IMG/VR virus record: IMGVR_UViG_2925908680_000006
Length of the DNA: 37,300 bases
Reading direction: 5' to 3' (one strand)
Source of the DNA: a virus
Taxonomy: Duplodnaviria > Heunggongvirae > Uroviricota > Caudoviricetes
A program made the translations under genes and the position numbers. How positions within the stretch are numbered: the first letter of the stretch is position 1; each line of letters begins with the position of its first letter. Shown here piece by piece: positions 1,439-32,280 of the stretch. The notes under the pieces are model-generated. The model was given only the letters and a program-made list of their open reading frames with translations, did no database searches and was not told where the DNA came from.

Positions 1439-1904
1439 AAAGAGTTCCTTTCAAATTTAAATAAGCGTTAAGCCCCCACTCTTACTGGTGGGCCTCAATT
1501 TAAATTTGGGTGCCACTTCGACCATACCCTGGCAACCGATTGACGGGGGATTGCTCCCCCGTCGCGGTTTCCTTACTGCTTACACTGTAAGAACGCCGCA
1601 AACTCCGCTCCCCAAAAGCTCATCCGTATTTCACACAGCGAACCGTGCAGCATCCAGATGATGAGGATTACCGTCACGCAGAACGTAATGGCCGTAAGCG
1701 ATTTTTGCGACATAGCGCTTGCTCCTTTGTTGGAGAGGCGCTAACCTATCACTTGCTTAAGGTAGATATGTTAGGGCCTCGGTTAAACAGAAATGTTTTC
1801 CGGGGCCTTTCCACATCTGGCCTTCGGGTATTCCCTCCGACCATCAGCCGAAAGGCACCCGCGCGTAATCTATCGCTTTTTTGTTACTCCGGCAATTCTG
1901 CCTG

Positions 1905-2165
1905 TTAATTCTGAGATAAAGGCAAACTCATCTGATTGTTTCCTCTGTGTGAAGCTGGCAGCTCATGCCACGGGATACCTTCTGAAGAGTGAACGCCGGA
2001 GGCGTGTTTTGATGTGAATTTATGGAAAGCTTCCAGTGTTGAGAAGCATACGCCGCATTCCAGGTTGTTACACTGGTAATACTTTTGCCGCACGGTGTTT
2101 GAATCATTTTCCGGACGACTGGTGCGGATACGGGCAGATGCGCCACAAAGCGGACAACGGAACAT
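1905..2165 (-). CDS. ogr: Ogr-type zinc-finger late gene activator
   Basis: MFRCPLCGASARIRTSR...YYQCNNLECG matches the remembered P2 Ogr N-terminus and Cys pattern. Confidence 0.85.
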   Translation of the reverse strand: MFRCPLCGASARIRTSRPENDSNTVRQKYYQCNNLECGVCFSTLEAFHKFTSKHASGVHSSEGIPWHELPASHRGNNQMSLPLSQN

Positions 2166-2207
2166 AGCGACCTCCCTTAACGTGGTGCTGCCGCTATTCT
2201 AAGTTGC

Positions 2208-3317
2208 TCACTCTGTTTCTGCTATCCATTCCGGGATTTTTGCTTCAAGCTCAAGCTGCGTGGTAAAGCCACTGTTATCAATAGAGTGCTCCGCTTTTGC
2301 AATAATCCAGTCCTGATTATCAATCTCGCTTTTAAATCCTGTTACCGTGCCATGCATTTCGGGGTAGAGTTCTGCACGTCCACGCGCCAGCGTGATGGAA
2401 AATGATGCGGCTCCGCGTTGTAGTTGCTGCCACTTTGCCGCCGCTGCGCGTCTTGCTGCCTGCTCGTTCTGATAAGTCTTGCGTAACACAAACACATTGC
2501 CTTCCGCGCCTTCCATATAATCACCTTCACGGCTGCTGCTTTTCTCCTTTTTGGGTTTTGGCGGTTTACGGCGTTTCACGCTGACTTTTTTCTTTTTCCC
2601 GTAATTAAGATCAAGCCAGTAGGCGCGTACCCCCGTATACGCCTCGCGGTCAGCAATGCGGAACTGATGGCGATCGCCGCTGCTGCGTGTAATGGCGAAC
2701 GAGGGCAACGGCTGGCCCTGTGCGTTCACGCCACCACCTGGCATGATGAATAACAGATTGCCGCTTTTTACCGTGGTGATTGCGCCCAGCATTTCCGCCA
2801 TGCGCGTAAGGAAGGACATGTCGCTTTCTTCGGTCTGGTCGGCGTGGTCGATTTCGATATCCATCAGCATTTCGCTGATTTGCGGTTTCAGACCATACCG
2901 ATGAGCGATGGCGGATACCACACGCTCAACGGTCACATCATGCCAGGACACCTCACGTTTAACGTTAAATTCATCCCGAAAATCTGCGCTTCTGGCTGAA
3001 ACAGTCAGCCTGTCCGGCGGTCCTTCGTGAGCGATTTCATCAACAATGTAAGTGCCTTTTTCTGTCAGCGGTTCTCCCTTCCAGCCAATGAGAACCGTCA
3101 GGCGCGCGCCCCGTGGCGGTAGCTGCAACTGACCATCCGCATCATCCAGCGTGATGGTGAGCTGGTCCGCCTCAAATCCCCGGTTGTCGGTCAGTGACAG
3201 GCTCATCAGGCGCTCTGCCACGCCTGACAGCGTTTTACCCTCCGCGAGAATATCAAAATCCGGCATTTTCACGGGGTCTGTGCCCTGACTGAGCAATTGC
3301 ATGGTGGTGTCGGTCAT
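2208..3317 (-). CDS. D: Tail protein D (late control D family)
   Basis: 369 aa from ATG at 3317 preceded by GGGAGGG SD; LTDNRGFEADQL, SARSADFR, SWHD, GFTT motifs match remembered P2 gpD; the ORF-track N-terminal extension is ignored. Confidence 0.85.
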   Translation of the reverse strand: MTDTTMQLLSQGTDPVKMPDFDILAEGKTLSGVAERLMSLSLTDNRGFEADQLTITLDDADGQLQLPPRGARLTVLIGWKGEPLTEKGTYIVDEIAHEGPPDRLTVSARSADFRDEFNVKREVSWHDVTVERVVSAIAHRYGLKPQISEMLMDIEIDHADQTEESDMSFLTRMAEMLGAITTVKSGNLLFIMPGGGVNAQGQPLPSFAITRSSGDRHQFRIADREAYTGVRAYWLDLNYGKKKKVSVKRRKPPKPKKEKSSSREGDYMEGAEGNVFVLRKTYQNEQAARRAAAAKWQQLQRGAASFSITLARGRAELYPEMHGTVTGFKSEIDNQDWIIAKAEHSIDNSGFTTQLELEAKIPEWIAETE

Positions 3318-3474
3318 CTGCTCCCTCCCTGTGTGGCATGGTCGCATGTGCGTGCGGAGGGGGTTACTGCTTTTTGTTGTCGCCGTGGCGGGAGAATGGC
3401 GCAGGGGTGAGATTACGCGCGTGGTGGGTGATGATTGTTGCCGAATCATTTAACGGATACAAGGGGCTGAAGCT

Positions 3475-4659
3475 ATGAGTGAAACTCGTTTTCATGGTGC
3501 CCGTGTTACGGAAAATACCGACCTGGTAACAGCGATTAACGATGTTGATTCCAGCGTTATCGGTATCGTGGCAACGGCGGATGATGCGGACGCGAAGCTG
3601 TTCCCGCTGAACAAGCCCACACTGCTGACCCGCGTCAATGACGTGCTGGGAAAATGCGGAACAACGGGGACGCTTTATCGTGCGCTTAAGGCCATCGCAG
3701 ACCAGGTGAGCACAAAGGTGATCGTCGTTCGCGTGGCTGAACACAAAGAAGAAGACGGAAAGACGCAGGATCAACTGGTTATCGGTGGTTCTGAGGATGA
3801 CGGCAGCTATACGGGGATGTATGCGCTGCTTGTTGCAGAGCAGGATGAAAGCATCGGATACCGTCCGCGTATTCTGGCCGCGCCGGAGCTGGACACGGAG
3901 GCTGTAACAAAATCCCTGTGCGTGATTGCAGGTAAACTGCGCGCGTTTGTGTATGCCTCATGTCACGGCTGTAACACGATGGCTGAGGCGATTACCTACC
4001 GCCAGAAATTCAACGAACGTGAGGTGATGCTCTTATGGCCGGACTTCATCGCCTACAACCCGAAAAGTGGCAAAAACGAAACGTTCCCCGCGCCTGCCTA
4101 TGCGTGCGGCCTTCGTGCGTACATTGACCATGAGCAGGGATGGCACAAATCACTGTCCAACGTTCCGGTTAAAAATGTGCTGGGGATGTCGAGGCATGTG
4201 TTCTGGTCGTTACAGGCCGAAGACAGTGATGCCAACAGCCTCAACAACAAAGAAATCACGACCATTATTCGTCGCAACGGGTTCCGCTTCTGGGGCAACC
4301 GCACACCGGAAACGAACGCCTACATCTTTGAGGTGTATACCCGAACCGCACAGGTGCTGGCTGATTCAATTGCGGAAGCGCAGTTTGAAACCATCGACAG
4401 TCCACTGACGCCTGCGAACGTGAAGGATGTTATCAGTGCCATCAGGGCAAAACTGGATTCACTGGTTACTGCCGGGAAACTGATTGGCGCGGAGTGCTGG
4501 TATGACGTGGTGGATAACAGCACCACGGATTTACGTCAGGGACGTGTGCGTATTCGCTACAAATATACGCCCGTTCCGCCACTGGAAGACATGGAGCTTT
4601 ACCAGACGTTTACTGATGAATACTTTGAACCCGCATTTGCGGTGCTGGGAGGTGCCTGA
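3475..4659 (+). CDS. FI: Tail sheath protein FI
   Basis: 394 aa; FPLNKP, LRAF, GWHK, RFWGNRT, YTPVPPLE motifs match remembered P2 gpFI. Confidence 0.92.
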   Translation: MSETRFHGARVTENTDLVTAINDVDSSVIGIVATADDADAKLFPLNKPTLLTRVNDVLGKCGTTGTLYRALKAIADQVSTKVIVVRVAEHKEEDGKTQDQLVIGGSEDDGSYTGMYALLVAEQDESIGYRPRILAAPELDTEAVTKSLCVIAGKLRAFVYASCHGCNTMAEAITYRQKFNEREVMLLWPDFIAYNPKSGKNETFPAPAYACGLRAYIDHEQGWHKSLSNVPVKNVLGMSRHVFWSLQAEDSDANSLNNKEITTIIRRNGFRFWGNRTPETNAYIFEVYTRTAQVLADSIAEAQFETIDSPLTPANVKDVISAIRAKLDSLVTAGKLIGAECWYDVVDNSTTDLRQGRVRIRYKYTPVPPLEDMELYQTFTDEYFEPAFAVLGGA

Positions 4660-5171
4660 TGGCTGTGCCAAAACATCTTCGCTTTTTTACGCTGTTTGTG
4701 GATGGTGAAAACGAAGTGGGTAAGGTGACGTCCGTCACTCTGCCTAAGCTGACGCGCAAAACCGACAGCTACCGGGGTGGTGGCATGATGGGGGCGGTAA
4801 GTATTGATCTCGGCCTGGACGACTCCGCGCTTGATGCGAGCTTTGTCATGGGGGGCGCAGTTCGTGAGCTGTTCCTTAAGTATGGCGGCACGATTGACGG
4901 CACACTGCTGCGTTTTGCGGGTGAATACTACACCGATGCAGAAAGCGACCTGTATGAAGTCGAAATGCGCGGACGTGTGACGGAAATTGATATGGGGGAA
5001 GCCAAACAGGGCGAAGCCACATCACACACTTATGCCATTAAAAACACCTACTACAAGCTGAGTGTTAACGATCGCCCGTTGTGGGAGATTGACCTGCTGA
5101 ACTTCATTTACCGGAAGGACGGCAAGGACATTGTGCCCGATCGCATCCGTTCCGCGCTTGGGCTTGGCTGA
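4659..5171 (+). CDS. FII: Tail tube protein FII
   Basis: 170 aa; start overlaps the FI stop (TGATG); size and position match P2 gpFII. Confidence 0.85.
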   Translation: MAVPKHLRFFTLFVDGENEVGKVTSVTLPKLTRKTDSYRGGGMMGAVSIDLGLDDSALDASFVMGGAVRELFLKYGGTIDGTLLRFAGEYYTDAESDLYEVEMRGRVTEIDMGEAKQGEATSHTYAIKNTYYKLSVNDRPLWEIDLLNFIYRKDGKDIVPDRIRSALGLG

Positions 5172-5225
5172 TAAGTAATATGCAGGCGGCGCAGTGCGTC
5201 GCCTCTGACTGAAAGGAGTTTCCTG

Positions 5226-5591
5226 ATGAAAGAGACGAAAAACATCGATACCGAAAACACGGTAGTTACTGACACTGTGAAAGAAACCAGTGAGCGTGGC
5301 GTAAAACTTACCCAACCAATTGAGCGAAGCGGCGAAAAAATCACGTATGTGGAGATCACCGGGGCTATTGAGCAGGCTGGATCTCTGCGAGATTTGTCGC
5401 TGTCTGATGTGCTGAGTCTGAAAGCGGAATCCATGTTTACGCTGCTGTCACGCGTGACATCACCGCGACTGGATGAAGTGACGATCAAAAAAATGGCATC
5501 CCGTGACTTTATTCAGTTATGTGTGGTTGCCGTAAATTTTTTGAGCGGTGCGGACTCTGGCGGGAAGAACGAACAGGCGACGGAAGCCTGA
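5226..5591 (+). CDS. E: Tail assembly chaperone E
   Basis: 121 aa between tube and tape-measure genes; contains the slippery site. Confidence 0.8.
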   Translation: MKETKNIDTENTVVTDTVKETSERGVKLTQPIERSGEKITYVEITGAIEQAGSLRDLSLSDVLSLKAESMFTLLSRVTSPRLDEVTIKKMASRDFIQLCVVAVNFLSGADSGGKNEQATEA

Positions 5592-5755
5592 TCACGGTTG
5601 TGTGCTTTGAGCACATAGAAGACTTTGTGGCAGATATTGCCGTTATTTTTAACTGGTCGCCCGCCGAAATCTTCATGATGACGCCCGGCGAAGTGGTTAG
5701 CTGGCGTGAGCGGGCGGCACTTCGCAGCGGGAATGCAGACAATGAAGACTCTTGA
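5226..5755 (+). CDS. E': Tail assembly chaperone E+E' (-1 frameshift product)
   Basis: The -1 frame is open from the TTTTTTG heptamer at 5538-5544 to 5755 and ends inside the tape-measure start. Confidence 0.7.
5538..5544 (+). other. Programmed -1 ribosomal frameshift slippery heptamer TTTTTTG
   Basis: T6G in frame N_TTT_TTG within E, with the -1 ORF open downstream. Confidence 0.7.
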
Positions 5756-8549
5756 TATCCGGGTCGCTTTCAGCGCCGTTGACAGGCTGACCCGACCTGC
5801 CGAAAACGCACGCCGCCTGATGGGGCAGTTTGGTGACTCCATCCAGCGAACGCAGGGGGCGATCAAAAATCTCGAGCGTCAGGCGCGTTCATTTGAGCGC
5901 GCCCGCGACGCTGTCAGTAAAGCGGATGCGGGTATCGTGAAAGCACGACGCCAGCTTAACGCCCTTAATCAGTTACAACGCACGGGTACAGTGCTCAGCG
6001 AAAAACAACAAAAGCTGATGCAGCAGTTAAGCACCCGGCTTGAACGCCTGAATGAATCGCGCACACGGGAAATTCAGAAAATGCGGGAGCTTGGCGGAGA
6101 GCTGAAACGCCACGGCATTTCCCTGACAGGCAGCGATAACACCATCCAGCAGGCCATCAGACGCACCGAACAGTACAACAACCAGCTTGAACGCGAACGG
6201 CAGGCGCTTGCGCGTGTAACGCGGGCGCGTGAGCGGTATTCGCGCGCGCAGGAAACAGCGGGAAAACTGAAAACAGGTGGTGCGCTGGCAATTGGTGCGG
6301 CAGCGGCGGGCGGCTATGCTGCCGGGCGTTTTTTGCAGCCTGCGATCGGGTTCGGGAAAGAGATGTCCCGCGTTCAGGCACTGACGCGAATCGACAAAAA
6401 CAGCCCGCAGTTTAAGGCGCTGCGTGAGCAGGCGTTAAAACTTGGCTCTGAAACGCAGTTCACCGCAGGCGATGCCGCCAGTGGGCAGGCATTTCTTGCA
6501 ATGGCTGGCTTCACACCGCAGGCCATTCAGGCTGCGCTTCCGGGCGTGCTGAGCATGGCAACGGCTGGCGGTATGGACCTTGGCGAGACGGCGGATATTG
6601 GCTCAAATATCCTGACGCAGTTCGGCCTCTCCGCTGACCAGATGGACCGGGTCGGTGACACGCTTACAGCAGCGTTTACCCGTACTAACACTGACCTTCG
6701 CGCGCTGGGCGAAACCATGAAATATGCAGGTCCGGTGGCGGGTAAGCTGGGAATATCGCTGGAGCAGGCCGCAGCGATGGCGGGCGTGCTGGCGAATATG
6801 GGTATCAGAGGGAGTGATGCCGGGACGGCAATGCGTGCCAGCCTGGCTCGTCTGGCATCACCGCCAAAGGCGGCAGCAGAGGCGCTGAAAGAGCTTGGCG
6901 TGTCTGTCTCGGATGCCGGGGGCAAAATGCGCCCGATGGAGGATGTGCTGGCTGACCTTTATAAAGCTACCCGCAAATACGGGGAAGTTGACCGGGTATC
7001 GTTCTTTAAGGACATTGCCGGAGAAGAGGCTTTCACATCATTTATGGCCCTCGTTGATGCGGCAGGTGACGGCTCCTTACCCAAACTGAGAAAAGAACTT
7101 GAAGGCGCGCGCGGTGAGGCTGAACGCACGGCAAAGGTTATGGCCAACAACCTTGACGGCGATCTGAAATCACTCAGCAGTGCATGGGAAGGGTTGCGCA
7201 TCCGCATTGCAGATCTGATTGACGGTCCGCTGCGTTCTGTCACGCAGTGGCTCACGCGTGTGGTATCAAAGGTGACGGCGCTGGCGCAGGCCCATCCCGC
7301 ACTGACGCGCCAGCTACTGATTGCAGGCGGCGCACTGCTGGCAATGACTGCAACGGTTGGCTCGTTGTCGCTGGCTATTGGTGTGCTTGCTGGCCCGCTG
7401 ACAAAACTGCGTCTTGGTTTTTCCCTCCTGACCGGATCAATGAATGCTGTCAGGGTTCTGCCAGCACTATGGGGAATGGTGACGGGTTCCGTTTCTTTAC
7501 TGGGAGGCGCTATCGGGGCGTTGTTCAGTCCGGTTGGTCTTATCGTGGCTGCGCTTGCCGGAGCTGCCGTTCTTATCTGGAAATACTGGGATCCCATCAG
7601 GGCATTTTTTGCCGGGGTGTTCAGCGGGATTATGGAAAGGCTGACCCCGTTGCGCGAAACCTTTGAACGGTTTGGTCCTGTTTTTGACGCAATCGGGAGT
7701 GGGATCAGCCAGGTGTTTAACTGGTTTAAATCGCTGCTGTCACCGATGGAGTCCAGCAAGGAAACGCTGGATAAATGTACCAGTGCTGGCGAGATATTCG
7801 GTAACGTTCTTGGCGGTGCGTTACAACTTGTTCTGACACCTGCAAAAATGTTGCTGGATACGCTGGCGTGGATACTTGAAAAGCTCGGTGTGCTTCCGGA
7901 TGAAGCGGAAAGGGCGCGCAAGAAAATCGAAGACGCACAGCGTGCGGCCATTCTTCAGGACAAGGTTGCCTTGCTTCAGGGGGACCTGGCGAAAATCAAT
8001 CCGCCGAAGCCTGTGGAAAATGGCAATGGCACCGGAGGTGATAAACCCAAAGACAACAAACCGCTCACAGACAGCAATACCGGTACGCTACGCAGACTCA
8101 GCAAAATTGCTGATAACACAGGTAAGCTGGTTGATGAGACGAAAAAACGTATTGGCCCCGGCGATATTGTCTTTAAGAACCTGCCCCGCGCACTTGCCGT
8201 TCGTGGGGAGTGGCAGGAGCGGAAGATTGCGCAGGTCAGTAAGCCTGCCCCCGCAATTAATATCACACCTGTGGTTCCGGCTCCGCTGCCTCCGGCGCTG
8301 GTCCCTGTTGTTGCGGCCAGCTCCCGCCCGGTGGCAGAGGCCATACGATCGCCAGTGGCATCAGTTCCTGCAACTTCCCGTAACCGGGAGCCTGTTGCCT
8401 GCGGATTTGGCGGTGAAATTCATGTTCATCTGCATAACGTTGTTACACAGAATCCCCGCGAACTGGCGAAACTGGTCGGTGAAATGGTCAGGGCAGAAAT
8501 GGAACGGCGCGCCCGTGCCGGGCGTGGCAGTTTTTACGATAAAGATTGA
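5733..8549 (+). CDS. T: Tail tape-measure protein T
   Basis: About 938 aa; coiled-coil N-terminus, Gly/Ala-rich hydrophobic middle; position after E/E'. Confidence 0.9.
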   Translation: MQTMKTLDIRVAFSAVDRLTRPAENARRLMGQFGDSIQRTQGAIKNLERQARSFERARDAVSKADAGIVKARRQLNALNQLQRTGTVLSEKQQKLMQQLSTRLERLNESRTREIQKMRELGGELKRHGISLTGSDNTIQQAIRRTEQYNNQLERERQALARVTRARERYSRAQETAGKLKTGGALAIGAAAAGGYAAGRFLQPAIGFGKEMSRVQALTRIDKNSPQFKALREQALKLGSETQFTAGDAASGQAFLAMAGFTPQAIQAALPGVLSMATAGGMDLGETADIGSNILTQFGLSADQMDRVGDTLTAAFTRTNTDLRALGETMKYAGPVAGKLGISLEQAAAMAGVLANMGIRGSDAGTAMRASLARLASPPKAAAEALKELGVSVSDAGGKMRPMEDVLADLYKATRKYGEVDRVSFFKDIAGEEAFTSFMALVDAAGDGSLPKLRKELEGARGEAERTAKVMANNLDGDLKSLSSAWEGLRIRIADLIDGPLRSVTQWLTRVVSKVTALAQAHPALTRQLLIAGGALLAMTATVGSLSLAIGVLAGPLTKLRLGFSLLTGSMNAVRVLPALWGMVTGSVSLLGGAIGALFSPVGLIVAALAGAAVLIWKYWDPIRAFFAGVFSGIMERLTPLRETFERFGPVFDAIGSGISQVFNWFKSLLSPMESSKETLDKCTSAGEIFGNVLGGALQLVLTPAKMLLDTLAWILEKLGVLPDEAERARKKIEDAQRAAILQDKVALLQGDLAKINPPKPVENGNGTGGDKPKDNKPLTDSNTGTLRRLSKIADNTGKLVDETKKRIGPGDIVFKNLPRALAVRGEWQERKIAQVSKPAPAINITPVVPAPLPPALVPVVAASSRPVAEAIRSPVASVPATSRNREPVACGFGGEIHVHLHNVVTQNPRELAKLVGEMVRAEMERRARAGRGSFYDKD

Positions 8550-8555
8550 GGAGTC

Positions 8556-9050
8556 ATGGCCATGATGATGATCTACGGCATGTTTGTTTTTGAGCTGCGC
8601 ACGCTGCCGCATCAGCAGTTACAGCAAAACAAAAGCTGGCGGCATGTGAAAAATGAACGCGTTAACCGTTCAGCAAGCTGGCAGTATATCGGTGCAGGTG
8701 ATGATCGCATCGTTCTTTCTGGTGTGCTTTATCCTGAAATTACAGGTGGCGAAGTGTCGCTGTCGCTGCTGACCACGCAGGCGTATACAGGACGACCCTG
8801 GCCTTTGATTGATGGCGTCGGGCAGATTTACGGCATGTATGTCCTGACCGGAACGAATACGACCCGTTCCGAGTTTGATCGCTACGGTAAGGCGAAAAAG
8901 ATAGAATTTTCACTGACCCTTGAACGCTGTGATGAGGATTTGCGGGAGCGCCTGCAATCCTCATCGTTCAGCGATATGCTGTCCGGCTTCAAAGATAAGG
9001 TGACATCATCTCTTAACAGCGCGGCCAGTTCAGTTAAAGGGCTGTTCTGA
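8556..9050 (+). CDS. U: Tail protein U
   Basis: 164 aa starting MAMMMIYGMFVF, resembling the remembered P2 gpU N-terminus; follows T. Confidence 0.8.
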   Translation: MAMMMIYGMFVFELRTLPHQQLQQNKSWRHVKNERVNRSASWQYIGAGDDRIVLSGVLYPEITGGEVSLSLLTTQAYTGRPWPLIDGVGQIYGMYVLTGTNTTRSEFDRYGKAKKIEFSLTLERCDEDLRERLQSSSFSDMLSGFKDKVTSSLNSAASSVKGLF

Positions 9051-9054
9051 TTTA

Positions 9055-9100
9055 ACACAAAAACCGCTAATGGTCAGATTAGCGGTTATTTTGTTTTCTG
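9055..9100. terminator. Bidirectional terminator between convergent U and invertase genes
   Basis: Perfect 10-bp stem aaccgctaat / attagcggtt (9062-9087) flanked by A/T tracts on both sides. Confidence 0.7.
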
Positions 9101-9673
9101 ACTCTTCTCTATTGTTCCGCTTGATTCTCCTGCGGGGTGGTAACGATAAATCGTCGATGTACCAATGCCGTAAATTATTGCCAGTTGTTTTCTGTCGTGA
9201 CCGTTTTTAATCAGCCTTGCTATTTGCTCATGCTGTTCTTTTGTCAGCTTCGGGCGACGTCCGCCTGTGCGCCCCCGTGCGCGCGCTGCTGCCAGTCCGG
9301 CCAGTGTACGTTCAACAATTAATTCACGTTCCATTTCAGCCAGGGCACCCATCACGTGGAAGAAAAAACGCCCCATTGGAGAAGATGTATCTATGCTGTC
9401 GGTCAGACTGCGAAAATTAATCCCTCGCTCCCGTAGTTCCCCGACGAGAGAAATCAGATGTTTCATGCTTCGCCCGAGGCGATCCAGTTTCCAGACAACC
9501 AGCGTGTCACCTTTTTGAAGGCGCTTTAAAGCGCGTTTTAATCCCGGTCGGTCTGTCTTTGTCCCGCTTAATTTATCTTCAAATATTTGTTCACATCCTG
9601 CACAAACAAGAGCGTTTCGTTGCAGGTCTGTATTCTGGTCATTTGTTGATACCCTTACATAGCCAATCAGCAC
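9086..9673 (-). CDS. gin: Serine DNA invertase (Gin/Hin/Pin/Cin family)
   Basis: LIGYVRVSTNDQNTDLQRNAL...GDTLVVWKLDRLGRSMKHL is near-identical to remembered Mu Gin; likely GTG start at 9673; C-terminal HTH. Confidence 0.93.
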   Translation of the reverse strand: MLIGYVRVSTNDQNTDLQRNALVCAGCEQIFEDKLSGTKTDRPGLKRALKRLQKGDTLVVWKLDRLGRSMKHLISLVGELRERGINFRSLTDSIDTSSPMGRFFFHVMGALAEMERELIVERTLAGLAAARARGRTGGRRPKLTKEQHEQIARLIKNGHDRKQLAIIYGIGTSTIYRYHPAGESSGTIEKSQKTK

Positions 9674-9727
9674 GCTGAATCTCCCGTCCAAAAGCGTAAA
9701 TCATGCCATGCAGGTCAGAAACGGCCA

Positions 9728-9766
9728 TTATCTAAAACCTCGGTTTACAGGAAACGGTAAACAGGG
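9728..9766. repeat. Left gix-type recombination site (inverted repeat)
   Basis: ttatctaaaacctcggtttacaggaa matches the Mu gix consensus; shares a 23-bp inverted repeat with 12767-12805. Confidence 0.85.
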
Positions 9767-10758
9767 CTGGTAACGCCGTGCAAAAAAATGGCGATACCTT
9801 GTCCGGTGGGCTTACTTTTGAAAACGACTCAATCCTTGCCTGGATTCGAAATACTGACTGGGCAAAGATTGGTTTTAAAAATGATGCCGATAGCGATACT
9901 GATTCATACATGTGGTTTGAAACAGGCGACAACGGCAATGAATATTTCAAATGGAGAAGCAAACAAAGCACCACAACAAAAGACCTGATGAATCTTAAAT
10001 GGGATGCTTTGTCTGTTCTTGTTAAAGCCCTTTTCAGCAGTGAAGTAAAAATATCGACAGTCAATGCACTGAGGATATTTAATTCATCTTTTGGTGCCAT
10101 TTTTCGCCGTTCTGAAGAATGCCTGCATATCATCCCTACACGAGAGAATGAGGGGGAAAATGGCAATATAGGGCCGCTACGCCCCTTTACGCTTAATCTC
10201 AGAACTGGTCGCATAAATATGGGGCATGGTCTGGATGTTACAGGAGATATAACAACTAACGCATGGGTGTACGCAAACCGCCTTGCAATTAACAGCAGCA
10301 CAGGCATGTGGATTCATATGCGTGACCAGAATGTTATTTTTGGACGTAATGCGGTATCCACTGATGGTGCTCAGGCTTTGCTCCGTCAGGACCATGCCGA
10401 CCGCAAATTTATGATTGGCGGTCTGGGAAATAAGCAATTTGGCATCTACATGATTAATAACTCAAGGACAGCCAATGGCACCGATGGTCAGGCGTACATG
10501 GACAATAACGGTAACTGGCTTTGCGGTGCGCAAATTATTCCCGGAAATTATGGCAATTTTGACTCACGCTATGTGAGAGATGTCCGACTTGGCACACGTG
10601 TTGTTCAATTGATGGCGCGTGGAGGGCGTTATGAAATAGCCGGACACGCACTTACCGGATTAAGGATTATTGGTGAAGTTGATGGCGATGATGAAGCTAT
10701 CTTCAGGCCGATACAAAAATACATCAATGGCATATGGTATAACGTCGCACAGGTGTAA
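9742..10758 (+). CDS. Alternative tail-fibre variable C-terminal cassette (no own start; fuses to H constant part after inversion)
   Basis: Reading frame continues from gixL as [33 protein letters not shown]..., matching the remembered C-terminal half of P2 gpH; ends ...[11 protein letters not shown]. Confidence 0.8.
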
Positions 10759-10761
10759 ATT

Positions 10762-11287
10762 ATGCAGCATTAAAAAATATTAAGTCTGGAAATCCAAAAA
10801 CAAAAGAACAATATCAGCTAACAAAGAATTTTGATGTTATCTGGTTATGGTCCGAAGACGGAAAAAACTGGTATGAGGAAGTGAAAACTTTCAGCCAGAC
10901 ACAATAAAGATTGTTTACGATGCAAATAATATTATTGTCGCCATCACCAAAGATGCCTCCACGCTTAACCCTGAAGGTTATAGCGTCGTTGAGGTTCCTG
11001 ATATCACAGCTAATCGTCGTGCTGATGATTCCGGTAAGTGGATGTTTAAGGACGGAGCTGTGGTTAAACGGATTTATACGGCAGACGAGCAACAACAACA
11101 GGCCGAATCACAAAAGGCCGCGTTACTTTCCGAAGCAGAAAACGTTATTCAGCCACTGGAACGCGCTGTCAGGCTGAATATGGCGACGGATGAGGAACGC
11201 GCACGACTGGAGTCATGGGAACGCTATAGTGTTCTGGTCAGCCGTGTGGATACGGCAAATCCTGAATGGCCACAAAAGCCTGAATAA
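10762..11287 (+). pseudogene. G: Tail-fibre assembly gene (G/Tfa-like), interrupted by two 1-nt frame disruptions
   Basis: ATG at 10762 hits TAA after 3 codons; conserved N-peptide [16 protein letters not shown] is in the -1 frame; body from about 10896 is in a third frame and ends ...[15 protein letters not shown]...PEWPQKPE. Confidence 0.5.
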
Positions 11288-11315
11288 AAATTAAGGCCCG
11301 ATAGCGGGCCTTGTT

Positions 11316-11845
11316 TCATTCTGGTTGTTCTGGAAACGTTACTGGCAGGCTGGAGGTGTCTGTGGATTCGACCTTCTGCGCATAGAGCATCCACTCGGTT
11401 AATTTTTGTTTATTCTCGTCGGAAATGATACCCAGCCGTAGCTGTGAGTCCCATAGCTGGGTTTTATCCCTGACAAGTTGCAACAGGCTTTGCTTTTCAT
11501 TCTCTGCCTGCTGCCTCTGTTCCTCCTCGGTATAAGTTCGCTTTATCACTACGCCATCTTTGAACATCCATTTACCCGAAATATCAGCCCGGCGATTTGC
11601 TGTAATATCAGGTAATTCAACGACGCTTGCGCCTTCCGGATTAATTGCTGAAACATCCTTTTCAATACAAATATAACGCGTTATGGTCATAGACCATTTT
11701 CAAAGTGTCTGGCTGGAAATTCTTTTGTTCTCATACCAGTTTTTTCCATCATCTGAATAAAGCCATTTGATGTTAAATTGCTTTGTTAGCTGGTATTGCT
11801 CTTTTGTTTTAGGGTTGCCAGCAGTAATGTTTTTAAGTGCATCAT
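11316..11845 (-). pseudogene. Second tail-fibre assembly gene (G'-like), interrupted by several 1-nt frame disruptions
   Basis: ATG-ATG at 11845 is out of frame with the conserved peptide [22 protein letters not shown]; in-frame TGA at about 11700; [17 protein letters not shown] readable only in an alternative frame; intact C-terminal body 11316-11690. Confidence 0.5.
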
Positions 11846-11847
11846 CG

Positions 11848-12792
11848 TTAAATACTCCCCGCGTTATACCACGTCCCATTAATGCAATACTGAATTGGCC
11901 TTGCCTGAGTTGTATCACTTAATTCATCACGGTTCCCGTAACTGAACCGTACGACATAACCTGACCTGTCAGACCAGGCCGGGGCCATTCCATGTCTGAA
12001 CAGATGACAGACCGCCAAGGCGAATACCTGTAATAACCTTGAGTTACATTCTGCCCGCGTATATGCACCAACATCTCCCGCAGAGGGTTTGCGGGTTGTG
12101 GTGTAAAACTCTGACCAGTCAGCTTCAAAGCCATAACCATCTCGCGCTGAACGATAATAAATACCGCCGTTCTTATAATTCACACGGAACTGAACCGCCG
12201 GGCAACTCCCCGCATTCATATTAAAGTGAAGAATCAATGTTGACGCTCCACTAATAGTCGCATCATAAACGCCGCTATTCCAGTTCCAGCCAACAGCTTT
12301 ATCATTGCAAACCCTGCTTCTGTTGCCTAAGCAATGCAGGCGGTGTTTTTACGTGTGTAGTCTCTCGCAGCCAGGAGAATAAACCATCACCATGGATAAT
12401 ATAGGTGAATTGGCGTTAGAATTCCGCCACCACTTGGACGTGCTCGGGTGGTAACGCGTTATGGTTCATTTTACGCCCGGGGGTTCCCCACCTCAATCAC
12501 GGCTCCGGCAGGCAGATATGTCCAAAACCGGGATTCCGTAAAACCTGTTTCTGGCATAGGACCATGAACCTTTACACATCCAGTATGGATGTCGGAAAGC
12601 TCGTTTCTCCAGCCACGAAATTAATGCAACTGTCGACCATCAACCTTGGAACCATCGATATCAGTCCTCGCCGCTAAATGCACGACAAAAGCCCCTGTGT
12701 CTTGTATTGAATTTATTTCTATTTCGGAATATCTGCACCTGCTTCTTGTTTCGTATGCCTCAGAAGGCCTGTTTACCGTTTCCTGTAAACCG
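11848..12792 (-). pseudogene. Degenerate alternative tail-fibre variable cassette (currently joined to the H constant part)
   Basis: Fibre-like C-terminus ...[17 protein letters not shown] at 11848-12237 is in a different frame from H, and 12238-12620 has no ORF of 60 aa or more in any frame. Confidence 0.5.
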
Positions 12793-14201
12793 AGGTATTC
12801 GATAACGGCAGCAACGGTCGATTTCGCAAGAATATCCCGCCCGACTTTTGTCAGGGTTGCCAGGCTGGCGACATCATTCCCCGTAAAATACGGAAACTTG
12901 TCTGCCGCAGTAGCAAGCCCGGCCAGCGCCGTCAGGGTGGCATCTTTCGGTTGCTTACCCGCAAGCGCGTTAGTCATGGTGGTCGCAAAATTCGGGTCGT
13001 TTCCCAGCGCCGCCGCTAACTCGTTCAGCGTATTCAGTGCGTCAGGTGACGAATCTACAAGGGCGGCAATCGCAGCCATAACGAAAGCCGTGCTTGCGAT
13101 TTGGGTATTATTCGTTCCCTGTCGCGCAGTTGGCGTTGTTGGCGTTCCGGTCAACGCAGGACTGTTTAAGGGCGCTTTCTTGTTCGTTTCATCCATTACC
13201 GCCTTAACCGCTTTCGATGTCGCGGCCAGTGTTTCAGACGTGCTGTTGGTGGCACTACTGAGCTGGACTATCCCTTTTTGTGCCGTCGTGGCGTCCTGAG
13301 CGGTATATTTTGCGTTAGCAAGGTCATACGCGGCCTTTACTGCTTTCGGCGTTGCAGCCTGCGTTTCAGACGTGCTGTTGGTGGCGCTACTGAGCTGGAC
13401 AAGGCCTTTTCGTGCCGTCGTGGCGTCCTGAGCGGTATATTTTCCGTTAGCCAGGTCATACGCGGCCTTTACTGCTTTCGGCGTTGCAGCCTGCGTTTCA
13501 GACGTGCTGTTGGTGGCGCTACTGAGCTGGACAAGGCCTTTTCGTGCCGTCGTGGCGTCCTGAGCGGTATATTTTCCGTTAGCCAGGTCATACGCGGCCT
13601 TAACCGCTTTCGGCGTTGCAGCCTGCGTTTCAGACACGCTGTTAGTGGCGCTACTGAGTTGAACAAAGCCTTTTGCGGTCAGCGAGGCGTCCGGGTGACG
13701 TCGTGACTGTTCATGCTCTTTCAGTTTGTCATCCACGTAATCCACTGTGGCCATCACCATGGTGTTATCCACGGTAAGCGCCACGGTGGCCGTGCTGGAT
13801 ACGGTCAGAATGGTGCGAAATGTTTGTGCACGACCGGACCCTTCAGCAACGGCTGGCTTGTAACTTTCGGCAGTATTGCCCACCGCGATTAAATCGCCGT
13901 GCTCATCAAATACACCAATTTCCCGGATCCAGAATCCGCCCGTTTCAGGAGGAATAACCAGCTCCGCAATAATGCGGTTCTGATGTGTTGCGTCCAGGAT
14001 GACGCGATTAACTGTGTGTCGCCACACCTCATGCACCAGACGGGTCTGCTTACTGTCTGGTGTGAGCAACGTGCCGCCACCGTCGCCCACGGCCATATGA
14101 GTCAGGCGAACAGGCTTACCATCTGGCGCGGCTGCCTGAGCTAATTTTTTGGCACCTGTATCGGTGATAACGGTTTTAAATTTTCGTGTTGTGGTACTCA
14201 T
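12621..14201 (-). CDS. H: Tail fibre protein H: constant N-terminal part (12793-14201) plus a short 45-codon tail in the present orientation
   Basis: N-terminal 470 aa match remembered P2 gpH including the QLSSATNS...TPKAVKAAYDLANGKY repeats; after the gixR-encoded GLQETVNR it reads PSEAYETRSRCR... and stops. Confidence 0.85.
   Translation of the reverse strand: MSTTTRKFKTVITDTGAKKLAQAAAPDGKPVRLTHMAVGDGGGTLLTPDSKQTRLVHEVWRHTVNRVILDATHQNRIIAELVIPPETGGFWIREIGVFDEHGDLIAVGNTAESYKPAVAEGSGRAQTFRTILTVSSTATVALTVDNTMVMATVDYVDDKLKEHEQSRRHPDASLTAKGFVQLSSATNSVSETQAATPKAVKAAYDLANGKYTAQDATTARKGLVQLSSATNSTSETQAATPKAVKAAYDLANGKYTAQDATTARKGLVQLSSATNSTSETQAATPKAVKAAYDLANAKYTAQDATTAQKGIVQLSSATNSTSETLAATSKAVKAVMDETNKKAPLNSPALTGTPTTPTARQGTNNTQIASTAFVMAAIAALVDSSPDALNTLNELAAALGNDPNFATTMTNALAGKQPKDATLTALAGLATAADKFPYFTGNDVASLATLTKVGRDILAKSTVAAVIEYLGLQETVNRPSEAYETRSRCRYSEIEINSIQDTGAFVVHLAARTDIDGSKVDGRQLH
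12767..12805. repeat. Right gix-type recombination site (inverted repeat)
   Basis: ttcctgtaaaccgaggtattcgataa; inverted copy of the 9728-9766 site. Confidence 0.85.
13230..13700 (-). repeat. In-frame tandem repeats of 123 bp (41 aa), about 3.8 copies, inside the fibre gene
   Basis: Repeated unit GxVQLSSATNSxSETQAATPKAVKAAYDLANGKYTAQDATTARK at protein and nucleotide level. Confidence 0.85.
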
Positions 14202-14203
14202 GC

Positions 14204-14734
14204 TTAATCGTCCGGATAAATGGTAATAACTTCACCGTCATAAGTTGCCGCCGCTGCGAAAATATCCCCCGGAATTTCCTGAATGATATTCAGCCCTGTC
14301 ATGTGGCGGCTGACCGGACGGGCATCAGCAATCAACCGCTCCATTTCCAGATACATTTCCTCCGTCACGCCACTGTCCAGTGTGCCGACTTCAACGGTAA
14401 ATGTTCCCGGTTCTCCGCCGAACTCCCACCACTCAGACACGCGAATGAGGTATCCCAGCGGCTCAATGGCCCTGCGCAGTGCGCTGATGGTCCCTTTGTG
14501 TCGGTGTATCAGCCATGCATCACGAATCACCTGTCGTTTTGTCTCTTCCGGCCAGTTGCGATCCCAGCGGTCAACGGAAAATGCCCAGGCGAGATAAGGC
14601 AGCAGGTGCACCGGGCAGGTGTCCGGCGACCACAGCGTGTTGAGGTCTACCGGGATGTCTGTAATGCGCGTTCCGACAGCTTCGGCACAACGCATGAAAC
14701 TGCTGGCTGATGGTGGTAACAGTGAATTACTCAT
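14204..14734 (-). CDS. I: Baseplate/tail protein I
   Basis: 176 aa from ATG at 14734; position and size match P2 gpI. Confidence 0.8.
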   Translation of the reverse strand: MSNSLLPPSASSFMRCAEAVGTRITDIPVDLNTLWSPDTCPVHLLPYLAWAFSVDRWDRNWPEETKRQVIRDAWLIHRHKGTISALRRAIEPLGYLIRVSEWWEFGGEPGTFTVEVGTLDSGVTEEMYLEMERLIADARPVSRHMTGLNIIQEIPGDIFAAAATYDGEVITIYPDD

Positions 14735-15623
14735 TGCGCCCACCTTCGCTGATGGTGAACGACTCACAGCGCGCCGCCTGTATGTCGCTGATGGCCATAT
14801 TCTGTGTGGGTTCGATTATCTCCACGCGTTGCACACCGTGCACATGCAGTGCGGCAGCAATGGCGGACAACGCCACGTCCTGACCGATAAGCCCCTGCTC
14901 AGCCAGCCACTTCCTGAACGACGATTCAGCCGCCGCCAGAATAGGTTCGGATTCCGGGCCGGGGTAAAAGTACAGTTTTGCATTCAGCCGCCATGTCACG
15001 ATTCTGGCGCTCTGTACAGTAAGGCGGTCGGCCACCGGGCGGGTATCCTCTGCATTCAGAACGGCGCGAACGGTATTAAGCAACGCCTCCGTTGCTGTGC
15101 CGTCGCCTTCAGTGGACAGGATGGAAACCGTCACATTTGCCGGAGACGGACTGATAGCCCGCGCATCACGCACCAGACCGCTGGCGCTGCGGGCAAAATA
15201 CTCGTATGCACCTGACGGGCCAGCAACACTCAGGCCATCGTACGCCCGCTGCGCCCGCAGTCTCAGCGAGGTGTCACTTTCCATCACTGCGTCGGTGGTA
15301 TCCGTTGCCGGAGTGATGGTCAGGCGCTTTGTGTTCATATTGCCCGCGAGGTTGTCCAGGTCTGTCCCGGCGCTGTGGCTTAACATGCAGGCGCGTGCCC
15401 CCTCATTGACCCGCTGGCGTAACAGCATTTCACGAAACGCTGTTGTCTGGGCGATAACGTTCAGGGGTTCCGATTCCAGCTCCAGCGCGGCGGAGACGGC
15501 TTCACGCTGTTCGGCGGGATAAGCCGCAATCATCATGGCCTTTGTGTCAGCCAGAATTGCCTCAAAGTCAGGCTCCGCGATGATGGCGGGTTCCGGTAAC
15601 TGGGAAAGGTCAACGGCGGGCAT
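14727..15623 (-). CDS. J: Baseplate assembly protein J
   Basis: 298 aa; size and position as P2 gpJ. Confidence 0.85.
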   Translation of the reverse strand: MPAVDLSQLPEPAIIAEPDFEAILADTKAMMIAAYPAEQREAVSAALELESEPLNVIAQTTAFREMLLRQRVNEGARACMLSHSAGTDLDNLAGNMNTKRLTITPATDTTDAVMESDTSLRLRAQRAYDGLSVAGPSGAYEYFARSASGLVRDARAISPSPANVTVSILSTEGDGTATEALLNTVRAVLNAEDTRPVADRLTVQSARIVTWRLNAKLYFYPGPESEPILAAAESSFRKWLAEQGLIGQDVALSAIAAALHVHGVQRVEIIEPTQNMAISDIQAARCESFTISEGGRNE

Positions 15624-15626
15624 GAT

Positions 15627-15977
15627 TTACTCCCTCAGCGTGATGGTTAACTCAACATTCTGCATGGTCTGCATGACAGTGCCCGACAGCGTCACCCCGG
15701 CGCGGCCTCCCGCTTTCCAGACAACGTCGATGGCATCCAGGGCAATGCGGGGTTCCCATCGTGTCAGCGCAATCACGGCAGCACTCATGCATTGCAGACG
15801 CGTGGTGTTATTCATGGGTTCGTCAATCAAATCAGGCACAAGGCTGCCATATTCCCGTCGCATAACCCGGCTTGCCAGCGGGGTGGTCAGGATATCCCTG
15901 ACTGACTGTTTCAGGTGCTCCATATCGTTCAGGTTTCCCGTCCCGTCCGGATTCATTCCTGTGTAGCGGGTTGTCAC
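15627..15977 (-). CDS. W: Baseplate protein W (gp25/GPW family)
   Basis: 116 aa; conserved position between V and J. Confidence 0.85.
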   Translation of the reverse strand: MTTRYTGMNPDGTGNLNDMEHLKQSVRDILTTPLASRVMRREYGSLVPDLIDEPMNNTTRLQCMSAAVIALTRWEPRIALDAIDVVWKAGGRAGVTLSGTVMQTMQNVELTITLRE

Positions 15978-16555
15978 TGCGGGCCTCCTGTCGAATCGCT
16001 GCCGCCTTTCACGCCACCGTGTTTATGCGTATGCACGGTAATGCCGTTTGAGGTGAAGTTGCCGCCGCTGTGCGTGATATTGCCGCTCATCTTTCCTCCT
16101 TTTGTGACGTCAAGCGTCGCCGTTCTCAGAAGGTTTGTGCATTCCACGACGGGCGTGTCCAGTTTCACGCTGACGGATGCCTGTAAAGTGGCCGTTTTCA
16201 TGCCGCTGGCGCTCAGTGCGCCTGCGTCCGCGTCGTAGCGGAACACCGCGCCGTCCGGCGCGCTGATCACGATTTCTTTCAGGCTTTTGCCGGGGGCCGG
16301 ACTGGCATCACTCCACAGGCTGCCAATTATCATGGCGGTTTCCGGGTTGCCGCCAATGCAGGCAATTACTACCTGTTCGCCTGGTGATGGCGGCAGCCAC
16401 ACATTGAAGGCTCCCGCGCGCGTGGTGTTCCAGCGCAGCCAGCCTGTTTCCAGTTCGCCGCTGCGAACGCGCACGCGCCAGGACTTCTCATCAACTTCAG
16501 AGATGATCCCGGTGCGGATGATATTGCTCAGCAGTCGCATGAGTTCTGCGCTCAC
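15974..16555 (-). CDS. V: Baseplate spike protein V
   Basis: 193 aa with Gly-rich C-terminus; position as P2 gpV. Confidence 0.8.
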   Translation of the reverse strand: MSAELMRLLSNIIRTGIISEVDEKSWRVRVRSGELETGWLRWNTTRAGAFNVWLPPSPGEQVVIACIGGNPETAMIIGSLWSDASPAPGKSLKEIVISAPDGAVFRYDADAGALSASGMKTATLQASVSVKLDTPVVECTNLLRTATLDVTKGGKMSGNITHSGGNFTSNGITVHTHKHGGVKGGSDSTGGPQ

Positions 16556-17187
16556 CGTACAGCCTCCGCAATCCGGCCCAGCACCGTGTTATAAATCAGG
16601 CGCTCATCTGCCTGGCTGATACCCAGCAGCTCACGTACCGGGTAATCGGTGAAAATGCCCGGCGCAACCTGATCGCGCTCACCGAACTGATGAACGCGGG
16701 CAATACGTGCGGCCACGCCGCTGTAACCCACCGTCACACCGGAAGCATCTGCACGGGCTTTCAGGTAGCGGGCGGTGCGCAGTTTTACGAACATGGGGAC
16801 GCGCTTTGTGCTGTCCTGGTTGATGCGCCGGGTGCGTATTTCCAGAAAACGGTCGATGTCATCCCGGTAAAACGTGCGGATATTGTTTTTATCCTCATCC
16901 CACCCGGTAATGGTTCGCCCGTATTTCCCCGTGTCGTGATGCCAGTTTTTCAGCGTGCGTGCTTCGTTATTCCAGATAAAGCGAATGCGTTCCTGTATCC
17001 GGGTTACGCGGCGTCTGCGTGGTGTCCACGCGGTCCCGTCCGGCGCTTTCTGTGACCGGATACGCGCCTGCTGGGCGCGGCGTAAATCCTGTGCCAGCTT
17101 TCTGGCGATGTTATTGATGGCCTGCTGATTCAGGCTGTCGCGGATGGCCTCAAAGGTTTCATCCACGCGGGTGAATGCCTTATCCAT
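16552..17187 (-). CDS. S: Phage virion morphogenesis / tail completion protein (S position)
   Basis: About 211 aa, between R and V as in P2; sequence assignment is weaker than for its neighbours. Confidence 0.6.
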   Translation of the reverse strand: MDKAFTRVDETFEAIRDSLNQQAINNIARKLAQDLRRAQQARIRSQKAPDGTAWTPRRRRVTRIQERIRFIWNNEARTLKNWHHDTGKYGRTITGWDEDKNNIRTFYRDDIDRFLEIRTRRINQDSTKRVPMFVKLRTARYLKARADASGVTVGYSGVAARIARVHQFGERDQVAPGIFTDYPVRELLGISQADERLIYNTVLGRIAEAVR

Positions 17188-17647
17188 CGCTTTCACCCCA
17201 CGTCACATCCTGGAATACATGCGACCAGTCGCCTTCGGAAGATGGCAGGCGGGGTTTTGGCTCCGGCAGGTGTTCTGCCTGCGGTGTGCCCTGACTGCTG
17301 CGCGTGATGCGAACGCGTTCCCGCAGGGGGAGCGTAAACAGGAGATCGGCGCTGTCATCGTCATTGATAACGGCGGAAAATTTGATGTCCTGATTACGCT
17401 CAGGGTTGAGCAACAACTGTGGCTGATTTTCGGATAACCACGCCAGCAGCGGCAGCGTGAGGTCGTCCAGCTCCCCGGCGTAATCCATGACAAACATCAC
17501 CATCTGATAGCGGTAAACAAACGATGGGGTTTCTCCGGTCGTTTCAATGTTGCCGCTCTCCACGAAAATGGTGAATTTTTCCGGGTTGGCCTGACACCAT
17601 CGGCATGAACGGGTCATGGCTTCACGCAGGGAATCAGTTTTCAGCAT
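17180..17647 (-). CDS. R: Tail completion protein R
   Basis: 155 aa; MLKTDSLR...FV..G....LL.P...AWL.ENQP resembles remembered P2 gpR. Confidence 0.85.
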   Translation of the reverse strand: MLKTDSLREAMTRSCRWCQANPEKFTIFVESGNIETTGETPSFVYRYQMVMFVMDYAGELDDLTLPLLAWLSENQPQLLLNPERNQDIKFSAVINDDDSADLLFTLPLRERVRITRSSQGTPQAEHLPEPKPRLPSSEGDWSHVFQDVTWGESDG

Positions 17648-17924
17648 GGTTGTTATCCTCGTTGTTCAGTCGTTGCAGCCTGCGCTGTTCCAGTAATTCA
17701 ATGGCCCGTTTATCCGCGTTACAGGTTTCCAGTGCATCCAGAAGGCGGTCGCCCCATATACCGAGATTTCCCCATGTGGGAGTATCAGGGAAGGGGGGAG
17801 GCGTTACCGGTATGGTCAGCGTCTGCGGTATAAGCCGGACTGACGGCGCTGGCCGTGGCGCGTTCTGCGTGCCTGCGCAGCCTGTCAGTAAAACGAGCGT
17901 CAGGCAAAGCGTGGGCGCATTCAT
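17634..17924 (-). CDS. lysC: Outer-membrane spanin lipoprotein (LysC/Rz1-like), embedded out of frame in lysB
   Basis: MNAPTLCLTLVLLTGCAG lipobox; Pro-rich; nested in the LysB coding region. Confidence 0.75.
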   Translation of the reverse strand: MNAPTLCLTLVLLTGCAGTQNAPRPAPSVRLIPQTLTIPVTPPPFPDTPTWGNLGIWGDRLLDALETCNADKRAIELLEQRRLQRLNNEDNNHAEN

Positions 17925-19104: not shown

Positions 19105-19607
19105 CAGCACAACTCCGCAAAGATTCGCGGGCGGCACAGAATGTCAGAGATGGCCCAGCTCACATCGCGCCACAAATCCGATGTCTGTATATCCAGTGCG
19201 TCCGCCCGGCGGTCGCCCTTGTCCGTTGTGTCCGCATCGCGGTAACGCTCCAGAATCAGGGCGCGTGTGGCGGTGTAAACCGCATTGCGCCAGTGCCAGA
19301 GATTGACGCTTTCTCCGTTAATTACGGGTGCCGGAACATCGGCCAGCGTCTGATGGCCAGCCGCCTGCTGTTCCTGCTGCCACGCTTCCAGCTCGCGGGT
19401 AACGTGTGCCACGGCCCCGGTGGCGGTATGCAGCAGGCGGGAGGTGGTCACACGGCCCGGCAGTCGTACCGCCAGACGCAGCTCACGCAGCACAATATCC
19501 GGCCAGAATGCACCTGCTGAAATACGGGTATCACCATCATCGGTATCGGTGATGTCGTCCTCTGCGGGTCCGGGGTTGGTTCTGGCAACCATACTCATGG
19601 GGTTCAC
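19104..19607 (-). CDS. L: Head completion/stabilisation protein L
   Basis: 167 aa; position and size as P2 gpL. Confidence 0.85.
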   Translation of the reverse strand: MNPMSMVARTNPGPAEDDITDTDDGDTRISAGAFWPDIVLRELRLAVRLPGRVTTSRLLHTATGAVAHVTRELEAWQQEQQAAGHQTLADVPAPVINGESVNLWHWRNAVYTATRALILERYRDADTTDKGDRRADALDIQTSDLWRDVSWAISDILCRPRIFAELC

Positions 19608-19699
19608 TCCTGAAAAAATCGGGCGGTGGGTGCGCGGTGTAAACGGTCACGGAGTCAAACCGGAACACCGCGCACGCCGCCCGCTGACGGGGTCAGTCG

Positions 19700-20500
19700 T
19701 TAACCGCGCTTCGCCTTCTGCGTCGCGGTGGTTTTTCGTGTTGCAGGCTTCCGCGTTGTCTTTTTACTTTTGCTGCTTTCGTCCTGCGCCTGCGGTGTGC
19801 TGGCATCTTCTGGTGCGGCTGCGGAATCGGCTTTTTTCAGGGCGCGGGAAAGGGTTGCAATCTCGCGTTTCACACCTGCGTTCGGGTTCAGGTGCATCGC
19901 TTCGCGCAGCAGCTTCAGTGATGAGGCCATGCTGTCCGCATCGGTCAGGCCACGGCGGGCAAAGGCGCACGCTTTGCATAATTTGGCGCGCACTTCGTCC
20001 GGCATGTCCTGGTCGGTGACAATCTCCCGGAGGGTGTCCAGTGGTTCGATAAAGGCGGACAAATCCGCGTCGGCATCCGTCCCGGCCTGCGTCAGTACCG
20101 GATTACAGATTTCTTCGGTCAGTACCGTGGCAGCAGTACGTCCAAAGTTATCCGGCATGATGAGGTTGTGACGGACCACATATGCACCAATACGCAGCGC
20201 CAGCGGAAGATCGCCGCAGTCAATCGCCCACACCATCAGTGTGGCAATCACTTCATCCTGCTGCCCGCCGTCAGCCTCCAGCGTTCCCTCAATCCAGCCG
20301 GAAAAGTCCGGCAATAACTCTTTTTTGATGGCGGCTTTCGCGCTTCTGGCCTGTACGCCCTTAAGCCGGGCCTGTGCCAGACGCAGACGATACAGCACCT
20401 CTTCATGCGCGGTACGCGCGGCGTGGTCCACGCCTTCATTCGCCCGGCCTGCGCGCTGTGCCATCACGTTCTGCCAGTGTTGCTGTGCAGGAGTAATCAT
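19700..20500 (-). CDS. M: Terminase endonuclease (small) subunit M
   Basis: 266 aa with basic Lys/Arg-rich C-terminus; position as P2 gpM. Confidence 0.85.
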   Translation of the reverse strand: MITPAQQHWQNVMAQRAGRANEGVDHAARTAHEEVLYRLRLAQARLKGVQARSAKAAIKKELLPDFSGWIEGTLEADGGQQDEVIATLMVWAIDCGDLPLALRIGAYVVRHNLIMPDNFGRTAATVLTEEICNPVLTQAGTDADADLSAFIEPLDTLREIVTDQDMPDEVRAKLCKACAFARRGLTDADSMASSLKLLREAMHLNPNAGVKREIATLSRALKKADSAAAPEDASTPQAQDESSKSKKTTRKPATRKTTATQKAKRG

Positions 20501-20545
20501 TTTTTCTCTCCGTTACAGGCGGGCATGATGCCCGCCGTGAGGTGA

Positions 20546-21598: not shown

Positions 21599-21620
21599 AA
21601 AAATTTGCTCCTTTGTCTTA

Positions 21621-25870: not shown

Positions 25871-25912
25871 GCGCGATTATCGCCCTGGTTTGAGGGAGAT
25901 CAGGTGTTATTT

Positions 25913-27356: not shown

Positions 27357-27419
27357 TGTGTCCCCCTTGTTTATGTTCCCGGATTAAAGTCATCAGGGCG
27401 GATGCGCCCTGATGTTGTG

Positions 27420-31594: not shown

Positions 31595-31600
31595 AGTGAT

Positions 31601-31966: not shown

Positions 31967-32038
31967 TGCGGCAATCCTCTGGTTACAGATGTGCGAAGGC
32001 CTCCCGCCGCAAGGTGCAGGAAAGGCCCGGAACAGGAA

Positions 32039-32269: not shown

Positions 32270-32280
32270 GATATGTGGCC

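Follow-up and report, generated by a model that had tools for sequence, protein, structure and literature searches.

The question that this locus raises is whether two tail fibre assembly (tfa) genes, neither of which can be read as a single frame in the deposited sequence, are broken in the phage itself or only in its record. The window, by which we mean the whole stretch of 37,300 nucleotides analyzed here, is a P2-like, P88-like (Xuanwuvirus) E. coli prophage carrying a standard invertible host-range switch. The initial annotation, made from the sequence alone, had described in it two opposed Tfa genes interrupted by single-base indels at short homopolymers, with the implication that both chaperone genes had been inactivated in the phage.

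Organization of the invertible tail-fibre locus

The two opposed tfa genes are indeed present, at the positions collected in Table 1, and they lie within an invertible segment. The adjacent invertase gene, 195 aa long in the gene call of the source record, codes for a resolvase catalytic domain followed by a C-terminal HTH, and its homologues in relatives are annotated as "recombinase family protein" or "DNA invertase". The two 45-nt crossover arms are separated by 2,996 nt, and the reading frame of H runs across the right arm, so that one crossover site lies inside the fibre gene. The Gin/Cin-type invertase flips the 3.0-kb segment between these inverted repeats, and the flip joins the constant part of H to either of the two variable ends, each with its own Tfa chaperone gene downstream. 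In the orientation of the window Sv' is not joined to H. Each tfa gene is placed directly downstream of the fibre end that it serves, as is expected for the Tfa family, with tfa+ starting 4 nt past the stop of Sv' (10758 to 10762) and tfa- starting 3 nt past the end of Sv (11848 to 11845). The tfa genes form between them two pairs of inverted-repeat arms, one at 10762-10920/11687-11845 (73% complementary) and a second at 10949-11106/11503-11660 (71% complementary).

Table 1. Features of the invertible tail-fibre locus, and differences counted in consecutive parts of it against the best reference for each part (PEC399 or ETEC4090)
Feature	Position	Strand	Remarks
Serine DNA invertase (Gin/Cin/Pin type)	9086..9673	-	Pfam Resolvase PF00239, 1.5e-50; HTH_7 PF02796, 1.1e-13
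Left crossover inverted repeat	9724..9768		45-nt arm, 91% complementary to 12765-12809
Sv', alternative variable C-terminal part of the tail fibre	9778..10758	+	Intact open frame of 326 aa; Pfam Gp34_trimer
tfa+, tail fibre assembly protein (Caudo_TAP)	10762..11287	+	Pfam PF02413, 5.3e-38; one-base deletions at 10770 and 10884
tfa-, tail fibre assembly protein (Caudo_TAP)	11316..11845	-	Pfam PF02413, 6.4e-37; one-base deletions at 11673, 11679, 11730 and 11830
Sv, variable C-terminal part of the tail fibre, fused to H here	11848..12790	-	Heavily corrupted
Right crossover inverted repeat	12765..12809		Error tract ends inside, at 12772
Constant N-terminal part of gene H	12791..14201	-	Pfam Phage_tail_fib and Phage_fiber_2
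Tract of private indels	10770..12772		Read as low-quality consensus; 56 of the 77 gaps of the window against PEC399 lie in 10700-12800
Compared part 1	9740..10769		2 mismatches, 0 deletions, 0 insertions (against PEC399)
Compared part 2	10770..11310		1 mismatch, 2 deletions, 0 insertions
Compared part 3	11311..12300		1 mismatch, 8 deletions, 1 insertion
Compared part 4	12301..12790		22 mismatches, 24 deletion events, 15 insertion events (against ETEC4090)
Compared part 5	12791..14300		1 mismatch, one 132-nt repeat unit deleted, 0 insertions (against ETEC4090)

The segment is known in both orientations. That of the window is also found in ETEC4090 and PEC399, and the opposite one in phage P88 and in the near-identical prophage of E. 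coli U90 (NZ_CP068035.1), where positions 10885-15117 of the prophage locus, compared with positions 9724-12809 of the window, show the segment in flipped form, with H joined to Sv' and tfa+. As the flipped segment of U90 stands in essentially the same prophage, it provides direct comparative evidence that the switch operates.

A serine invertase beside a segment of about 3 kb with inverted crossover sites is likewise found with the G segment of Mu (Gin), the C segment of P1 and P7 (Cin), the P segment of e14 (Pin) and the segment of P88, and in these systems too the constant fibre part lies outside, and two opposed sets of a variable end plus Tfa/U lie inside. At the DNA level the segment is 88-94% identical to those of SfMu, P88 (Peduoviridae, Xuanwuvirus), P7 and D6; the cin gene of P7 has an annotated Fis-dependent recombinational enhancer within the invertase gene. 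Compared with the switches of the Mu G, P1 C and P88 type no biological difference was detected, and only the private indel tract of the deposited sequence differs.

Lesions in the tail fibre assembly genes

Neither of the tfa genes is called in the deposited record. The tfa+ gene reads ATG CAG CAT TAA, so that only 3 codons precede the stop in the ATG frame, and the body lies in another frame, as had been described; a T is lost at 10770, where TTT is read as TT (T3 to T2), and an A at 10884 (A5 to A4), and the body is reached only past both losses. For tfa-, the proposed shift of the ATG at the TTAAAAA tract was also found, caused by the one-base loss at 11830 (T6 to T5 as read on the + strand, corresponding to the A-run of TTAAAAAAC), but the number of lesions had been underestimated, as the gene has four single-base deletions and not two. 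At both genes the lesions are one-base losses in short runs, in agreement with the initial annotation.

When these genes were compared with their closest counterparts, almost nothing else was found to differ. The tfa+ gene, at 526 nt, differs from the 528-nt gene of PEC399 by its 2 deletions and 1 synonymous mismatch, and tfa-, at 530 nt, differs from the 534-nt gene of ETEC4090 by its 4 deletions and no mismatch. Repair of the gaps only, with no other change, yields intact proteins of 175 aa from tfa+ and 177 aa from tfa-, which are 100% identical to WP_001164111.1 and WP_000972144.1, respectively, and score 130.6 and 127.1 bits against Caudo_TAP (PF02413, cut-off 22.1). This supports the earlier proposal of an ancestral single ORF of about 175 aa, and such an uninterrupted ORF, absent from the deposited sequence, is present in all the relatives examined. 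On the other hand, the two copies do not differ only by synonymous-type changes, as had been thought; they are paralogues that have diverged, and their C-terminal thirds are for the most part dissimilar.

Frameshifts inside phage tail-assembly genes can be functional, as in the programmed -1 frameshifts of E/E' in P2 and G/GT in lambda, and an E/E' pair was found in the window at about 5226-5750. Both tfa genes are shifted at an A-rich tract in codons 4-6, which could suggest programmed ribosomal frameshifting, transcriptional slippage or run-length switching at the conserved TTAAAAAA tract. We consider such recoding or phase variation vanishingly unlikely. The sites of E/E' and G/GT are conserved in all homologues and consist of one shift at a slippery heptamer, whereas the interruptions of the tfa genes occur in this record only and amount to two and four per gene, so that 2-4 separate shifts would be needed in each, several of them at runs of only 2 bases. 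No run is as long as those of typical contingency loci, and neither the interruption nor a variable run length was conserved in homologues: in 113 IMG/VR loci the broken start junctions of tfa+ and tfa- gave 0 matches each against 75 for the intact ones, and the close relatives are all uninterrupted.

Distribution of the lesions among relatives

Homologues with the same interrupted organization were sought and none was found among 5,426 complete E. coli genomes and 113 IMG/VR loci. The former contained no copy of the broken sequence, and in the latter, which had been recovered with patterns accepting both intact and broken forms, the five broken junction strings gave 0 matches and the intact strings between 47 and 95 each. 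In the closest complete E. coli genomes both tfa genes are intact (528 and 534 nt), and so is H. Over positions 9740-11310 the six closest genomes are 99.3-99.7% identical to the window, and all of them measure 1,573 nt, compared with 1,571 nt here. A scan of the GTDB species representatives with the tfa- start junction and the second tfa+ junction matched neither the intact nor the broken forms and was hence uninformative. The H protein of the window, truncated to 526 aa, was found on one contig only, the E. coli chromosome with GenBank accession CP024997.2 (assembly GCA_002804345.3), from which the window derives and the sequencing method of which was not found in the literature that uses CP024997.2 as an E. 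coli or Stx2e reference.

One close homologue of tfa- is also interrupted in its deposit, namely gene U of phage P7 (AF503408; 2529-3062 of the compared locus), annotated as Ua/Ub. We considered it as a precedent for the same interruption and rejected it, because P7 U keeps a full-length frame of 534 nt with no frameshift, and differs by one in-frame nonsense codon (W94 to stop, where relatives have Trp).

Extent of the indel tract

As shown in Table 1, the lesions extend beyond the tfa genes, as part of a single tract that also damages Sv. The initial annotation had taken the genes of the other 36 kb as intact, and this is wrong for the neighbouring H, the variable part of which is corrupted. 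Sv is readable only in pieces, as an ORF at 11848-12237 plus the tail of the ORF at 12621-14201, and H stops prematurely at 12621 because of the indels and mismatches accumulated in its Sv part. Within the stretch 11848-12300, Sv has 4 one-base deletions, 1 insertion and 1 mismatch.

Indels outnumber substitutions by 11 to 2 over 10770-12300. All 11 indels, 10 contractions and 1 insertion, fall in runs of 2-6 identical bases, and half of the contractions (5 of 10) affect runs of just 2, a length at which slippage seldom occurs naturally. The error density reaches around 12% in 12301-12790, where over-calls and under-calls occur together (for example, TCCTGTTTGCCCTAAAGCAAATGC read as TCTGTTGCCTAAGCAATGC); it rises toward the right crossover site and ends there, with the final indel of the tract inside the crossover repeat. 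The counts given for 12301-12790 in Table 1 refer to the best relative among the 5,426 complete E. coli genomes, ETEC4090 (NZ_CP122620.1, 4,716,181-4,716,751). Across these genomes, the best match to 12240-12800 reaches only 88% identity. The proportion of 17-mers that are present in around 120 related loci falls to 0-33% per 100 nt in 12300-12800 and to 0-34% in Sv, compared with 100% in the flanks.

The sequence on both sides is clean. Positions 1518-10032 align with ETEC4090 with 0 gaps over 8,515 nt and 99.78% identity, positions 9000-9700 are identical to the best relative among the 5,426 complete E. coli genomes, and positions 19300-21900 are 100.0% identical to U90 and ETEC4090. Two A-run differences from PEC399, at 19613 and 21599, were considered as further miscalls and rejected; they are real alleles, given this complete identity of 19300-21900 to U90 and ETEC4090. 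The whole-window 17-mer scan is informative only where relatives were included in the comparison, and its low private-17-mer values at 25800-27500, at 31300-33700 and beyond 35000 correspond to non-homologous accessory genes and not to errors. Outside the tract, a one-base difference from PEC399 was observed at 1476 (AAGCCC-CCACTC against AAGCCCACCACTC). The version of the window was absent from every other locus compared and could represent either natural variation or one more miscall.

Origin of the indels

The lesions are private, dominated by indels and associated with homopolymers, and their repair restores known proteins, a combination that is characteristic of an artefact. From these sequence comparisons, the tfa frameshifts are most probably consensus errors in the deposited CP024997.2 (GCA_002804345.3) and not properties of the phage, a reading to which we assign a probability of about 0.9. 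An assembly error had been named at the outset as one thing that could refute the interruption, and the comparative evidence favours it. The implied inactivation of both chaperone genes in the phage is unsupported, as the lesions are private, nearly free of substitutions and part of a 2-kb indel tract.

Long-read assemblies have been documented to yield homopolymer indels that fragment genes (PMC12007338, PMC9262707). The same one-base homopolymer miscalls produce frameshifts and apparent pseudogenes in them, and repair restores the proteins of relatives; the difference is that the errors are confined here to 2 kb within a 37-kb region that is exact elsewhere, with a local density of about 12%. 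This confinement, with an end at a recombination site, suggests that read support was lost locally, as opposed to an error rate shared by the whole genome. The tract 10770-12772 would then hold under- and over-called short homopolymers of the kind typical of single-molecule reads with scant read support.

Long-read error at a segment inverting in culture is the probable cause. The segment may have been present in both orientations in the culture that was sequenced, or the assembler may have broken the contig at the crossover site, and either situation would leave one side as a contig-end consensus made from very few reads and never corrected; the contig-end variant is our conjecture. A simple pile-up of reads in mixed orientations was rejected as the cause, since it fails to explain the clean left third of the segment (9740-10769). 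The asymmetry of the tract is itself a point against the artefact model, and so is the fact that the record is already in its second version and has been revised at least once with the errors still present.

Many tail fibre proteins labelled as "partial" in GenBank, of 465-468 aa, share a 90% cluster with the H of the window (12621-14201, -). The constant part, taken as far as the crossover site, is about this long, from which we infer that assemblies break there, and the match in length suggests that draft assemblies routinely end contigs at the invertible segment.

A related explanation is a collapsed or chimeric consensus, in which reads of paralogous tail-fibre and tfa copies, or of the flipped orientation, would have piled up at this place, or short-read polishing would have skipped a multi-copy region. 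E. coli genomes do carry homologous segments at a median of 2 places each, and at up to 9, and the tfa genes, 71-73% complementary, are placed nearly symmetrically about the centre of the segment. Paralogues mixed in this way should nevertheless give mosaics of substitutions shared with other alleles, and what was seen are private indels with 0-1 substitutions per gene; moreover, the left third of the segment is equally repeated in other genomes and yet clean. We give this explanation a very small chance, somewhat below that of the genuine decay considered next.

Genuine pseudogenization would mean that true frameshifts affect the two tfa genes as well as the variable part of H that is expressed, and that the prophage is defective in its tail fibres. 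The lesions do stand in a deposited sequence that has already been revised once, tail-fibre modules of prophages are often degraded, and gene U of phage P7 is truly or apparently interrupted. Against this, the ratio of indels to substitutions is 11:2 over 10770-12300, and the following 490 nt accumulate 39 indel events and 22 mismatches while being flanked by identical sequence, an indel excess between identical flanks for which we know of no evolutionary precedent. Deep decay should also add many substitutions and affect other genes, and the flanks are 99.8-100% identical to independent isolates; none of the lesions was found in any other of the genomes and loci compared. Pseudogenization is thus very improbable in our estimation.

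A last possibility is that the indels are real and reflect a localized burst within the segment, intensifying toward the right crossover site and ending there. If true, invertase-mediated recombination, or its repair, would have a mutagenic side-reaction not known so far. To our knowledge, no mutational process of E. coli gives four frameshifts without a substitution beside 490 nt with around 12% of mostly indel differences and identical flanks, and we see scarcely any chance for such a burst.

Other features of the prophage

The constant part of H contains a tandem repeat of 132 nt (44 aa) at 13201-13674, detected with Tandem Repeats Finder as 3.6 copies with 93% matches. Its copy number varies among near-identical prophages, the window having one unit more than PEC399 and one unit less than ETEC4090.

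The block with the sheath, tube, E/E', tape-measure and U genes (3475-9050, +) opposes the V-W-J-I-H block (11848-17650, -), in such a manner that both converge on the invertase, and gene D is at 2208-3449 (-). In P2 these genes are all co-oriented. The opposed arrangement is conserved in PEC399, ETEC4090, U90 and P88.

At the prophage end, positions 1-807 (-) of the window and the sequence upstream correspond, according to the annotation of PEC399, to a Com-family regulator followed by a DNA methyltransferase, with a TM2-domain protein and a Hok/Gef toxin. The prophage end of ETEC4090 and U90 differs at 1-807 from that of the window and PEC399.

Implications

The finding has little biological importance in itself, as the switch is of the textbook Mu G / P1 C type and has already been described for P88-like phages. 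Its practical value is one of caution: being heterogeneous in culture and prone by nature to break contigs, invertible segments can leave behind a local patch of error that stays uncorrected in a complete genome that is otherwise exact. Such a patch reads as a set of pseudogenes, in this case a truncated tail fibre and two uncalled tfa genes, and pseudogene counts, calls of prophage intactness and predictions of host range made from CP024997.2 would be wrong at this locus.
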